This document shows, one piece after another, positions 38,501 through 56,500 of a stretch of DNA of 64,000 nt. The stretch covers positions 11,472,001 through 11,536,000 of the forward strand of contig CM097885.1 of the NCBI GenBank assembly GCA_044892525.1, read 5' to 3'. Every line of letters begins with the position of its first letter. The first letter of the stretch is position 1. The position numbers and the translations under genes are program-made. This DNA is from Schmidtea polychroa (Eukaryota). The notes under the pieces were generated by a model. That model saw nothing but the letters and a program-made list of their open reading frames with translations. It was not told the origin of the DNA and searched no databases.

Positions 38501-41500
38501 GACAGATGCGGCATCGATGTTATGGGAAGCGGCGAAAATAGCGAAGATGACCGATGAAATGGCAAAAGAGTGGTTTATAGAAACTTTTACAGTAAGGAAA
38601 ACCATTACTAACAAGATTGTGGAACTAGTTCAAATTCAGCAAGAGAGAGATGAAAGATTCCAAGTCTTCGAAATACGAGTAAGAAGTTTAGTTAAAAGTG
38701 TATTTAGCTCTGGAATGTCTGATGAACAGATTGTTCGAGACATTATCTCAAACAGAGCGAAAGACGATAGAGTAAAAGAAATATTCTTATCAGGGAAAGT
38801 GACAAGTTTTGAAGATGCCAGGGATATGGCAAAAATTCAGGAGAAGATCGAGATGACGAATGACAATAAATTCAATATTGATGCCATAAGAAGAGACTCC
38901 TACGCATCAGTGATGAAAAATGGTAAATTCGAGGGTAGACGAGACCAAAGAACAATTGTGAAGACAACTGCACATCAACGCGACGAACACCGAGAGATTA
39001 ATCATGAGAGGAATAGAGCTGGTAATGGTCGGTTTGTACCAATTGTAAATGAAGACAAGAATGAAAATGAGCGGTATAGAGGACGATAAGTAGTGTGTAT
39101 ATATACCCAACCAACACAACCCTCCCAACTAAAACATACCTCCATTATGCTTAAACCATTAGAAAAACAACATAAAACCTATACTTTTATAGTATTTTAA
39201 CCCCATATTTTAAACAACAACCACCCTTAATCTTTAAAACCTCAAACTCAAAAGCTTCAAACTAAAAAGAGAATAGAAAAGAAAATGGCATTATGAAAAA
39301 GTTAGAGGGCTATTTGATCTTTATCAGATTATTGATTTTAAATTATATAAATTAAAAAATAAATGAAAAATAGTAAAACTGCTCTGAGGGGACAGTGGTA
39401 TTTTTTTTTTTTTTTTTTCACTGTCCCCTCAACAGTTTTTTTTGATCCGGATCATTTTTTTATTTATCAACCTCTTTCGTTTATCGAATCTCTTCCAATA
39501 TACAAGCTGGCCAGACTCATACATCAAAATCAATCCGATAATAGCAGCACACCTTATTATTCGCTTCTCGCTCGAATACGATTTCATCGGCGTTTTAAGT
39601 GTGCTGCTCGAAAGTACGAATGAATTCGAAAGTGAATTCGAAAGAGGTCCGACAACAACTGAGAAATAAATGTGCACATTAAAGAATCGATCCGGGGGTG
39701 TTCGAAAGACAGGTGGCGATAATTACCGGTTCGCCACCATCACCCGTTTCAATAATTTTTTTTTCATATTTATGTTTAAAAAATAAAATAAAATAAAATA
39801 AATAAAATAAAATAAAATAAAATAAAAATAAATAAAATAAAGTATAAATCTAAGATACCCACACTATTATTTTCAAATTTTTAATATTATTTTATGTTGA
39901 AAAAAAACTAACCACAGTTAGGATTTGAACCGCTATCCATTTGAACCACGGTGCCGGTCTAGCCCACTGCGCTATCTAGGTTTGGATTTTTGTTATTTTT
40001 TAGACTATAAATAATCGATTCAAGTTCTTTAACTCCTTCCTGTAATTGTTTCATTTTCTTCAATCTTATATCAGCAACATCTACAGCCTTCATATAAAAA
40101 TGTCGATACTTTTCATTATCTACCATCAACTCTTTGATGTATTCTAATGGTTCTTCTTCTCTTCTTTTCATTCTCTTATGTTTAACTTCATTCAATTCAT
40201 TTCTCATTCTTTCTTTTAACTCATCCATTTTTCTAAATATTTTTTTATTGGATATATTAATTTTTGGTAGTTAAAACGTTTTTGATCTTAAATTTCCAAG
40301 AGTTGCCGTTGACCAATCACCTTAAAAATTTGTACAAGTACTAAATCGAGTATGCTGATCAATATTTCAACTCCCGGTGATAAAATTGAAGCCTATTCCC
40401 ACTCCGCTATAATGGCTTACATAATATATTTAATTAATCCTATTTTGTGTGTGTAAATTTTAATATATAAAAATGAATAATATAAAAATTCAAGAAAAAA
40501 ATAAATTAAATCTTGATTATAATAAAGAATTTACTCATGAAATCAAGAAAAACGATGTACTTAAAATCTCCCCAACTCCAGGATCTACTGCAAACTTAAA
40601 TCGTAGGGGTGATATAGTTTTTCAATCTCTTCAAACATCAAACACTATAGATATTTGTAATGCCAAATTATATTATAAAATCGAATCAGAAATTGAAGCA
40701 AACAAAGATATAACCCTAGAAAATAATTTCTTTCCAAATTTATTCTCCAACATGAGATTAAAACTAGGATCATCAGAAATTGAAACTGTTTTACATCCAG
40801 GAGTATATTCTACAATGTTAAATTTTATTTTGACTGGTTGTGATTATAAAAACGAATATGGTGAATTGACAGGCTGGATTCCTGATGTTAATAAAGGAGA
40901 TTTAGATAAAGATGGTTTAGATATAAATTATGGTTACTATAAAAGAGCTGAACTTTATAAATCTAAAAAATTTGAAGGTTATTTTGAATTAAAACACTTG
41001 TTTGGATTCCTTCAAAACTATAATCGTATACTTCATAATGTTTTTATAGAATTAGTTTGTAATAGAGTAGAAGGTGATAAAAGATTGTTCTATGGAGGTG
41101 TAGATACAAAAGCTAAATTAAAATTATCAACACTTGAATTGCATATACCTGAATGGACATTAAATCCACATTCTGAAATCAAACTCCTTGAAAGATTAAA
41201 TTCCAACAAGTCTATAAATGTAAATTATTTAAATAGAATCTGTAGTGAATTTAGTATGACAGAGGGTTCAACATATTCTATAAAGGTAGCAAATTTAGCA
41301 TACCGACCAAGATATATCTTGATTGGATTCAAAGAAGTAGATTCATCTTTCCAAAAAAATAACAACTTGTTTATTCAAAAGATTGGAGTTGATAAGTTAA
41401 AAACAATCCAAATTCAATTAAATAGTTCTTATTATCCAATAAATAGAATGGAATTTAATATTGAAAATAATGAAAACATATTCCCATATCTAAATTATAT

Positions 41501-53500: not shown

Positions 53501-56500
53501 ATTCTCTTTTTAGTTTGAAACTTTTGAGTTTGAGGCTTTAAAGATTAAGGGTGGTTGTTGTTTAAAATATGGGGTTAAAATACTATAAAAGTATAGGTTT
53601 TATGTTGTTTTTCTAATGGTTTAAGCATAATGGAGGTATGTTTTAGTTGGGAGGGTTGTGTTGGTTGGGTATATATGAGACAGTAGAACCAGAGAGAAGA
53701 ATACCTACAGTATCGCTTAAAGATATTGCAAGAAGGTTATTTAATGACAGCAAAGGAAGAGATTCGCCTCATCCAGTGAAACTGACACCAGGTCAGTGTT
53801 TTTCTTGTGGAGAAAAAGGGCACCGGCGTTTTGAATGTCCAATAAAGACAAATGTCTTATCTGTGGAAAAGAAGGTCATGGATTCAGAGATTGTTTTTTG
53901 TTTAAAAATAGAAATGGATATCAGAAGAGAGTGGCATGTATTTACGAAGAAGATCACGAAAGAAATAATGGTGATTTAACAGAAGATTTATACAGTAATT
54001 ACGAAGAAACGATAAAAAAATCAATGGATAAACCAAAAAACAAGGACGATCCCATTGCTTTCATTTCGTCAGTGGGGTCGACACAATAATCAGTAGAAAG
54101 AAGCGAAATGAAGACATGATGCAGAAGATGTATGAGACGACAGACAGAAGAAAGTGGAGTAAGATTGTAATAAACATGACGGCGATTGACATGCTTTGGG
54201 ACTCTGGAGCGTCAGTATCAGTTATGAGTGAAAAAAGTTGGACAAAGATCGGGAAACCGAGGTTGAAGCAGAGCACAATTTCTCTTTGTGGAGTATTTTC
54301 GACGGGAATGGAAAGACCGTTAGGAGCAATGACGATAGAAGCTGATTGGAATGGGAAAAAAAAGAATTATTAATGTTATAGTTGTCAAAGATATACGTCC
54401 AGATTTCATTGGGGGTGTAGATACAATGGAGAGATTTGGTATTCAACTGGTAGAGGTAGACAATATTGAAGCGTCACAAGTAGGGAGGACATATGTGGAC
54501 TCACAACGAGAAGAGAAAGCATTATTAATGCTTGGAGACAGGAAGAATGAACAGTTAGACATATTGCTACGGAAGTTCAAAGGTATTTTTATGGCTTCAA
54601 CTTTTGATCTCGGGTTTACGAAAGTTGTTCAGCATGAAATGAATATAGTAGGTGGGCCTGTAATGTTACAGCCAAGAAGACAACCAATGCATTTAGAACA
54701 AAAGCTTGACGAACTTGTCACAAACTTATTAGAAGCGAGAGTTATTAGAAAATGCAAAAGTGCATGGAACGCGCCACTAGTGATTGTGGCTAAGAAAGAT
54801 GGATCAATAAGGATGTGTGTCGACTATAGAGGGTTGAATTCGATCACTGAAAAGATATCTTTTCCAATGCCAGATACACGATTTCTACTGGATTGTCTGG
54901 CAGATTCAAAATATTTCACATCCATCGATCTAGGTCAAGCATATTATCAAGTTGGAATGGCGAAGGAAATTCAAGAGGTCACGGCTTTCAGTACAAGGCA
55001 AGGACAGTTTTGTTTTAACCGACTTCCTTTTGGACTAGCAACAGCCCCTGCGACGTTTCAAAGAATGATGCACTCAATGTTGGATGGAATATTATTTAAG
55101 GGTGTTGTTGTCTACCTCGACGACATTCTTGTCTATGGAAAAGACATAGAGGAACACAATAACCGATTAGAGGAAGTATTCAGAAGAATTCAATTAGCGG
55201 GGTTGAGAATTAACCCAGAAAAATGTAATCTGTATAAAGAAGAATTGACATTCCTAGGGCACACTGTAAGTGCAAGTGGGATAAAAACGAACGACAAGAA
55301 GATTAAAGAGATTCAAGATGCAGAAATACCAGTATGCGCCAAACAATTAAGGTCCTTTTTAGGTATGACCAATTACTATAGGAAGTTTATAAAAGACTAT
55401 GCGAATATTGCGGAACCTCTACATGCAGCTACGTCCGGCTGTGAGAAAAAGATTAATTGGTCAGAAGATTGCAACAATAGTTTTGAATTACTTAAAACAA
55501 AGTTGTGTGAAGCTCCAATTCTAGATTACCCAAGAATGGATAGAAACTTTATTCTGGATACAGACGCTAGTTTTGGGGCCATCGGAGCAGTTTTATGTCA
55601 AGCTAAAGAAGATGGTACTGAAGTAGTAATTGCATATGGGTCGAGACACTTAACCGCACATGAAAAAGGTTATTGTGTGACTAGGAAGGAGTTACTTGCT
55701 ATACACGAATATGTAATGTATTTTAAACAATATCTATACGGAAAGTCATTTGTAGTACGAACGGATCACAAGGCGTTGGTTTTCATGAGATACACAAAAA
55801 AACCGATAAGCCCGCAATTTCAAACCTGGCTAGCCAATCTTTCCGGATATGATTTCGATCTTCAATATAGGAAAGGAGAGGAACATGGAAATGCGGACGG
55901 AATATCAAGGATTAAAGGGATGCTATGTGCACAATGCCAGACTAGACATGAAGACGCAAAAGAAGAAAAAGCCAGAGTAAGACATATCAGCTCATTACAG
56001 AAGACTGAGTCAATGACAATACTCTTAGATAAGCAACAAGATGATGTAGATTTCATTCACATGACAAGAGTGTTACAGGGAGAAGAGAAAAAAGATGACT
56101 TGAATAAAAAGAAATTTCCTTTCAATTTGCATAACAACATAAAATTAGAAGATGGGTTTTTATTATTAGAGAAGAATGGTAAAGATGTCATCCTGGTGCC
56201 GATAGACTACTCAAATAGGTTAGTTAAAGGAATACATACTGAAATGTGTCACATTGGAGTAAAGAAATTAATTAGCTATATGAGCAACATATTTCTTTGG
56301 CCAAACATGCAAGAAACTATACAAAACTGTTTGAGAGTATGTGAGATATGCTGCAGAAGGAAAATAGTGCAGGAGAAGACAAAGGAACGATTGTTGCCGA
56401 TAATAAGTTCAGAATTTTTAGAACAGTTGGTCATTGATATAGCACACATGAAGAATGGTGGAGTGTACAAGTATATGCTAGTTATCATTGATCGTTTTAG

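Follow-up and report, generated by a model that had tools for sequence, protein, structure and literature searches.

Polintons (or Mavericks) replicate by protein priming from their terminal inverted repeats (TIRs), insert by way of an integrase and carry a module of capsid, protease and packaging ATPase genes. We here describe one of them in a planarian, in a stretch of 64,000 nucleotides (nt) from Schmidtea polychroa (assembly GCA_044892525.1, contig CM097885.1, positions 11,472,001 to 11,536,000, forward strand; called the window below, in whose numbering all coordinates are given). The element lies in the gag of a compact Ty3/Gypsy retrotransposon, which itself occupies an intron of a hemicentin-like gene. 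It carries virion genes, its polymerase and ATPase frames are broken, and one of its ends is clipped. In our judgement this is probably a young, decaying copy of a many-copy family that could now be moved or packaged only with the help of other copies.

Priming by a TP-vOTU-exonuclease-palm polymerase and insertion by an rve integrase have been described for Polintons (passages of PMC11071308, PMC10748475 and PMC6431247). In the parts of Barreat and Katzourakis (2021; PMC8097293) that bear on this element, Maverick TIRs range from 46 to 1,447 bp, which accommodates the repeats of about 0.9 kb found here, and the (AGT)2 left end, the protein-primed DNA polymerase B (pPolB), integrase, ATPase, protease and major capsid protein (MCP) are common to both, as may be the candidate minor capsid protein. 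Judged by its PolB, integrase, TIRs and capsid gene, our element is a Polinton/Maverick. The same parts of that study give a median of 8 copies for vertebrates, where the apparent copy number here is far higher, and report that 96% of vertebrate Maverick loci are degraded. Mavericks are called intact there if their conserved open reading frames (ORFs) are uninterrupted and a 6-bp duplication and both end motifs are present. Here two ORFs, those of pPolB and the ATPase, are broken, the right end is clipped such that only the left motif remains, and there is no 6-bp duplication; by this definition, the copy is a genomic fossil.

The proposed family Adintoviridae (Starrett et al. 2021; PMC8502044, in part) resembles the element in its rve integrase, adenain-type protease, FtsK/A32 ATPase and double jelly roll capsid. 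With the Beta class of that proposal, going by its definition, it shares a PolB that matches pfam03175 weakly, and an OTU-type cysteine motif may be a further likeness. The GasderminX gene of the Beta class was not recognised: neither it nor Cupiennin gave a match in Pfam or PHROG scans, which lacked profiles aimed at these genes. In the Alpha module, the passages describe PLA2X, a phospholipase A2 (PLA2) joined to pX, whereas here PLA2 is joined to the integrase and a pX-like ORF stands apart. We considered the PLA2-integrase fusion as a novelty and rejected this, because 105 of 120 relatives among the matches listed (of 1,175), from metagenome Polintons and including an Oculina patagonica protein, carry both PF08398 and PF00665 in a single chain. 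Our literature search found no paper describing the fusion, and the passages of the coral polintovirus paper contain no PLA2.

In planarians, Maverick expansion has been reported for Dugesia (bioRxiv 10.64898/2025.12.11.693146, in part), and Schmidtea Polintons are piRNA targets (PMC8532177, in part). The AT-rich genome and the many Polinton and Gypsy copies described in these sources agree with what we see; their passages on planarian Polintons give neither the gene content nor the junctions of single elements.

The nested elements and their junctions

The features of the two elements outside the Polinton genes are as follows.

37386..58522, minus: intron (GT..AG, phase 1, 21,137 bp) between two Ig I-set exons
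38210..38214 and 57279..57283, no strand: 5-bp target-site duplication of the Gypsy, both copies present
38215..57278, plus: Ty3/Gypsy element, 4,477 bp without the Polinton insert
38215..38285, plus: Gypsy 5' long terminal repeat (LTR), 71 bp, identical to the 3' LTR
38285..38295, plus: putative Gypsy primer-binding site, overlapping the LTR end by 1 base, presumably of the tRNA-Arg type
38256..39088, plus: 5' part of the Gypsy gag, cut by the Polinton
39089..40006, plus: left TIR of the Polinton, complete, starting with the (AGT)2 end motif
52776..53676, minus: right TIR of the Polinton, without its outer 10 nt, with a 3-4 nt microhomology to gag
53676..54089, plus: 3' part of the Gypsy gag, with two CCHC knuckles in different frames (break at about 53.8 kb)
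54035..54085, plus: putative programmed -1 gag/pro frameshift, with a slippery heptamer in register and a downstream hairpin
54032..57197, plus: Gypsy pro-pol in the order protease (PR), reverse transcriptase (RT), RNase H (RH), integrase (INT), with a frame break in PR at about 54.35 kb
57196..57207, plus: Gypsy polypurine tract
57208..57278, plus: Gypsy 3' LTR, whose junction with the host flank is present in run X1 at single-copy depth

A first-pass annotation of the window, made from the letters alone, had proposed a three-level nesting, and this stands: the intron runs from 58522 to 37386, the Gypsy from 38215 to 57278, and the Polinton begins at 39089. Its description of the insert as an adintovirus-like Polinton with a virion gene module in the Gypsy gag is borne out by gene content and TIRs, and the 71-bp LTRs are indeed identical. 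The insert itself spans 39089-53675 (14,587 bp, or 14.6 kb); the end had been placed at 53676, a base that fits both the TIR and gag. The two TIRs, for which about 9 substitutions in 0.9 kb had been counted, align over about 908 nt at 98.1% identity with 10 substitutions and 2 repeat-length indels.

The right junction is unusual. The outer 10 nt of the TIR are missing, and the 6 bp to the left of the Polinton are not repeated at its right, such that the 6-bp target duplication is absent. Evidence on other copies comes from the assembled contigs of four runs, X1, X5, X7 and X13. In all four, contigs join 39085 to 53673 and skip exactly 14,587 nt, with 3 letters fitting both sides. Since what is skipped has exactly the length of the insert, Gypsy elements without the Polinton exist as DNA. 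The annotation had noted that removal of the Polinton restores gag seamlessly. The joined gag is real, but it closes without a scar because the outer 10 nt of the right TIR were lost and there is no 6-bp duplication; as a normal insertion leaves such a duplication, the seamless gag is a sign of an abnormal junction. Furthermore, since empty Gypsy copies give the exact sequence before insertion, the junction documents cleanly how a Polinton inserted and, through microhomology, lost one of its ends.

We propose the following course of events. The Gypsy would first have retrotransposed into the intron, leaving its 5-bp duplication. The Polinton's own rve integrase would then have inserted the element into gag, as the complete left end and the known mechanism of the family suggest. 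At the right junction, a stretch between short ATAT repeats was lost, and with it the last 10 nt of the TIR and the 6-bp duplication that would be expected. This loss can be read from the sequence, and it may have come about by microhomology-mediated repair, either during or after insertion. Both elements would then have accumulated presumably neutral changes, about 0.5-0.7% per copy, and each now has two frame breaks.

The host of the Polinton has the features of a Gypsy element: the order PR-RT-RH-INT, LTRs, a primer-binding site, a polypurine tract and a duplication in the range of 4-6 bp. The best PDB match of its pol is the Ty3 Gag-Pol (E 1e-106). Mag-like Gypsy elements (the Mag rows of PMC3286476) agree with it in a length of 4.5 kb, a 5-bp duplication and short LTRs, a likeness of size, LTR and duplication only; the LTRs in these rows measure 119-304 bp and are thus longer than the 71 bp found here. 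Two CCHC knuckles are a further trait in common with Mag-like elements. The LTR of Bombyx Mag is said to be 77 bp long. Besides having LTRs of just 71 bp, the element has almost no leader.

Apart from the Polinton, the Gypsy has two frame breaks, one between the zinc knuckles (about 53.8 kb) and one in PR (about 54.35 kb), and both coincide with the two gaps in its alignment to a long family contig. These breaks are specific to this copy; at the PR break, 43%, 100%, 100% and 100% of the depth in the four runs differs from the window. A third frame change, between gag and pro, is likely a programmed -1 frameshift, because there is no gap relative to the family contigs and because a slippery heptamer and a hairpin are present; the 70-nt stretch of the overlap folds at -16.2 kcal/mol. 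The Polinton had been said to inactivate the retrotransposon. It would block Gag-Pol of that copy, but it is not the only lesion of this Gypsy, and the lesions may have arisen in either order.

Polinton genes and the breaks in two of them

The genes and ORFs of the Polinton are listed from left to right.

39959..40228, minus: 89-aa ORF whose 3' end enters the left TIR; no function assigned
40473..41759, plus: MCP, double jelly roll, 428 aa, open
41777..43180, plus: fusion of a Zn finger, a parvovirus-type PLA2 and an rve integrase, 467 aa, open
43177..43970, minus: A32-like packaging ATPase, frame-broken at about 43.6 kb
43986..44474, plus: 162-aa ORF with a pX-like hydrophobic segment (PF05829 E 0.033, below the cut-off)
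44565..45431, plus: 288-aa ORF; no assignment
45454..45909, plus: adenain-type cysteine protease, 151 aa, with His/Asp/Gln-Cys motifs and 44% identity to a syntenic homologue
45906..46676, plus: candidate minor capsid protein (penton), 256 aa, by size, position and homologue
46701..47699, plus: fibre-like ORF, 332 aa, with a tail-fibre-like N-terminal segment (PHROG tail-fibre; phrog_2710 E 4e-08)
47708..48310, plus: 200-aa ORF with a hydrophobic segment; no assignment
48389..52701, minus: pPolB, Beta-like, frame-broken at about 49.7 kb into pieces of 997 aa and 450 aa

Nine of the 11 genes are open frames. The MCP matches PF21738 (E 4e-26), and its structure model (pTM 0.82) is a double jelly roll, for which Foldseek returned the MCPs of iridovirus and PBCV-1 as the best solved matches (E 1e-14); the nearest fold matches are 8-16% identical in sequence. 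The integrase matches PF00665 (E 4e-12) and has both the DDE and the PLA2 motifs. Natural relatives match the MCP at 95% and the integrase at 89% identity over the full length. The protease found no meaningful match in PDB and was assigned by its motifs and homologue. The 256-aa ORF is likely the minor capsid protein (penton): a metagenome Polinton (L002, positions 1-9190) has a 38% identical homologue between protease and MCP, and the Atlas value is 0.98 to unnamed viral clusters, with a single-sequence model (pLDDT 34) that is unusable for fold comparison. That metagenome element has pPolB, there as a single open frame, protease, minor-capsid-like protein and MCP in common with ours, arranged in another gene order; one of its ORFs was compared with the pX-like ORF and did not align. 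The 288-aa ORF had no usable Atlas match. Mini-TBP was not found either, since none of the 13 Polinton ORF pieces matched PF00352, and an ATAAAC box directly precedes only one of 11 starts. In the spacer between the 89-aa ORF and the MCP gene (40259-40455), X5, X7 and X13 have a contig joint that skips about 197 nt, and the family therefore has a variant spacer.

The break in pPolB separates its motifs: the 997-aa piece has those of the exonuclease together with Pol A, and the 450-aa piece has Pol B together with Pol C. All motifs, Exo I-III and Pol A-C, are thus present, spread over two frames, together with an OTU-type Cys motif at residues 271-275 (at motif level only). The 997-aa piece has no match to pfam03175, and the 450-aa piece matches it with E 1.6e-07. 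Of the 150 relatives taken as representatives, 125 extend as far as the first piece does. Both pieces are matched by 108, and in 107 the two lie next to each other within a single protein; the pPolB of L002 is a single open frame of 1,403 codons. The ATPase is likewise split into two frames, between Walker A and Walker B. Its family was assigned via P0290 (PF04665 E 2.5e-08; 259 aa, 10 member sequences), which covers both pieces end to end (91% and 95%); both pieces are covered by six of 10 matches. At the ATPase break, the depth differing from the window amounts to 84% in X1, 88% in X5 and 100% in X13, with no coverage in X7. A Walker A motif ending in Asn was considered as a sign of decay and discarded, as it is common to the three closest relatives.

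On this sequence, the copy would be without a replicase and a packaging motor of its own, and the clipped right end would likely hinder its use in trans as well. If transcribed, it could supply capsid, protease or integrase. The full virion gene set that had been claimed is there in part: MCP, PLA2-integrase, fibre-like protein and protease hold up, penton and pX are weak, and ATPase and pPolB are frame-broken. The further claim of a near-complete and possibly virion-competent virus is not supported for this copy, with replicase and packaging ATPase broken between catalytic motifs and one terminus clipped.

Age, copy number and competing explanations

Aligned with each other, the TIRs show 10 differences in 902 sites (1.1%; 95% confidence interval 0.5-2.0), or about 0.55% per arm on the assumption that the arms began identical. 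The Gypsy differs from long family contigs at 27 of 4247 sites (X7) and 27 of 4030 sites (X13), about 0.65%, in runs that may be from other strains. The absence of differences between the LTRs (0/71) is compatible with up to 5.2% divergence and has a probability of 0.4-0.7 at the measured levels; because of this width, LTR identity dates little. Pieces of the Polinton differ from family contigs by 2.6-3.1%, a figure that mixes age with subfamily structure. The insertion had been called very recent, which in view of these values is an overstatement. Both copies seem young, not fresh.

With respect to abundance, single Gypsy contigs of X5 have a depth of about 12,000, as compared to 18-45 for the host flank, and in X7 the Polinton contigs (190-213) are about four times deeper than the Gypsy contigs (49-54). 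The Polinton-to-Gypsy ratio is about 4-6 in three runs of different studies and about 1 in X13. Its steadiness across the three runs is more readily explained by integrated copies than by an infection of variable extent. By depth, both families would have hundreds of copies or more, the Polinton perhaps about 1,000, with contig depth, as the tool itself warns, not being copy number. In X13, the depth of the TIR bin 52972-53635 exceeds that of the interior several-fold, which is not the case in X1, X5 and X7. This could stem from a TIR transcript or from short TIR-bearing derivatives; that X13 is RNA is a guess, and its TIR depth was not counted as evidence of expression.

Besides this caveat on depth, several observations weigh against taking the locus for a decaying nested copy. 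Contigs cannot prove breaks or junctions in the animal, and among the pieces listed for the four runs none bridges either Polinton junction at the locus; the Polinton junctions therefore rest on the assembly. At the pPolB break, X1 differs from the window in 60% of its depth, but X5 does so in only 0.4% and X7 and X13 in none, with loose ends in X5 and X13. Moreover, the PR break of the Gypsy sits in a homopolymer run, and decay is slight, given the nine open genes and the near relatives of MCP and integrase. The missing junction contigs are themselves not informative, as run contigs drop rare variants. In X1, the junction of the Gypsy 3' LTR with its flank is present, yet no contig has the letters of the window at 38629 or 39018. 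Single-copy repeat variants were therefore likely dropped, and their absence says nothing.

These points can be turned into a different account: the animal would carry an intact copy, and the frame breaks would have arisen during assembly, in a repeat that, like many-copy repeats in general, is hard to polish. It would explain why other copies read differently at the breaks, why most genes are open and why one Gypsy break falls in a homopolymer. Yet three of the four breaks (two in the Polinton, two in the Gypsy) lie outside long single-letter runs, the indels come with substitutions, at levels that agree between TIRs and Gypsy, and the clipped end with its absent duplication is a structural loss between microhomologies and not a typical base-calling error. 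We consider this account unlikely, while leaving it some room. We find it very improbable that the nesting as such is a misassembly of a Gypsy copy with a Polinton from elsewhere. The lack of a bridging contig among those listed and the non-canonical right junction speak for it, but both junctions fall at one gag position, give or take 3-4 shared letters, the terminus on the left is perfect, and the LTRs, the 5-bp duplication and the intron phase each close as they should. The X1 contigs, which hold the flank junction without the window letters at 38629 and 39018, show that single-copy variants were likely to be dropped in any case.

Two other accounts strike us as barely credible. One would make the Polinton cargo, reverse-transcribed together with the Gypsy as a single 19-kb unit, with template switching removing the TIR tip and the duplication. 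Identical LTRs next to TIRs differing by 1.1%, and a deletion between short direct repeats, which we take to be typical of reverse transcriptase, are what it would predict; however, 0/71 is not surprising at the measured divergence, none of the runs has depth for the window's gag letters beside the junction, such that the composite is not seen as multi-copy, and an AT-rich transcript of 19 kb would have to survive whole. The other would have the splits in pPolB and ATPase programmed, by ribosomal frameshifting or tiny introns, with the proteins still being made. Host introns of about 30-46 nt do exist. Against this, close relatives are single open frames, the ATPase pieces lie end to end on P0290 without extra sequence, and other family copies do not have the window's state at the ATPase break. 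Hence, decay of one copy of a many-copy family, after an insertion that lost one end, remains the account that we prefer.

A more far-reaching reading, which we regard as unlikely, accepts this copy as a defective passenger and sees in its family, with perhaps about 1,000 copies at at least 90% identity in the planarian, a still-active animal polintovirus that makes particles. The PLA2-integrase would couple membrane entry with integration, a private early box would time the replicase, and an outward Pol III unit in the TIR would act as a VA-RNA-like small RNA or as a chromatin barrier against piRNA silencing. 

It is the family, and not this copy, that could matter. What the locus indicates is a young Polinton family of many copies that has a capsid module and resides in an animal which can probably be kept in the laboratory with ease. 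As of PMC8097293 (in part), no particles of animal Mavericks had been observed, which makes this family a reasonable target in a search for free genomes or particles.

Candidate signals and the host gene

Two features recur in mirror image in the TIRs.

52808..52882, plus (mirror about 39900-39974, minus): A-box/B-box pair followed by a T run, Pol III-like and reading outward, at the inner edge of each TIR
53342..53400, plus (mirror about 39370-39435): strong hairpin of about 21 bp with an A- or T-rich loop, z -7.9

The A and B boxes are 43 nt apart, the B boxes are the sole matches in the window, and the pair occurred in 0 of 100 shuffles, for a consensus that was applied after the site had been seen. 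A tRNA gene in the TIR was considered and rejected: ARAGORN found 0 genes, none of 13 weak Rfam matches was a tRNA, and the fold z was about 0. The unit may possibly be a Pol III unit or a barrier. A literature search for Polintons together with RNA polymerase III and the B box found nothing. The metagenome loci obtained (at least four, from 582 stretches), in which no TIR was recognised, contained no A/B-box match, and IMG/VR yielded no relative by MCP alignment (0/40 pattern matches) and no match to the TIR box pattern. The loop run of the hairpin differs in length between the two TIRs. Finally, an identical 15-nt box containing CCAAT (52715-52729 and 40241-40255, minus) lies about 13-14 nt before the starts of pPolB and the 89-aa ORF. 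It is limited to these two, as other pairs of the 11 upstream regions share at most 9 nt, and is a possible early promoter.

The gene around the nested elements is large and is read from the minus strand. Its Ig I-set exons occupy 63.9 to 58.5 kb, and a further Ig exon lies at about 37.3 kb; TSP1 repeats follow at 33.8-32.4 kb, and EGF-Ca exons are found at 25-22 kb. In profile scans, this succession of Ig, TSP1 and EGF-Ca matches the order in hemicentin, for which reason we call the gene hemicentin-like. G2F had no Pfam match in the window and VWA was not seen within it; the 5' part of the gene extends beyond the window. The GC content of the host part is 28%. The intron begins with GT and ends with AG, the two Ig exons that it separates are in frame with each other, and the Gypsy inside its 21,137 bp is oriented opposite to the gene. 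As long as the 21-kb intron, whose splice sites are intact, is removed by splicing, the host gene would not be affected. As a nested insertion the locus is ordinary, and there is no indication that it affects the gene in which it lies.

Other introns of the gene harbor Penelope-like pieces (28885-34839, minus; RT 29749-30414, GIY-YIG 34282-34839), in a region that also has a 600-nt direct repeat of 87%. A MITE-like inverted pair lies at 61444-61930, and two dispersed repeats occur in opposite orientation (17380-17557 with 26279-26457, and 25777-26138 with 60064-60435).

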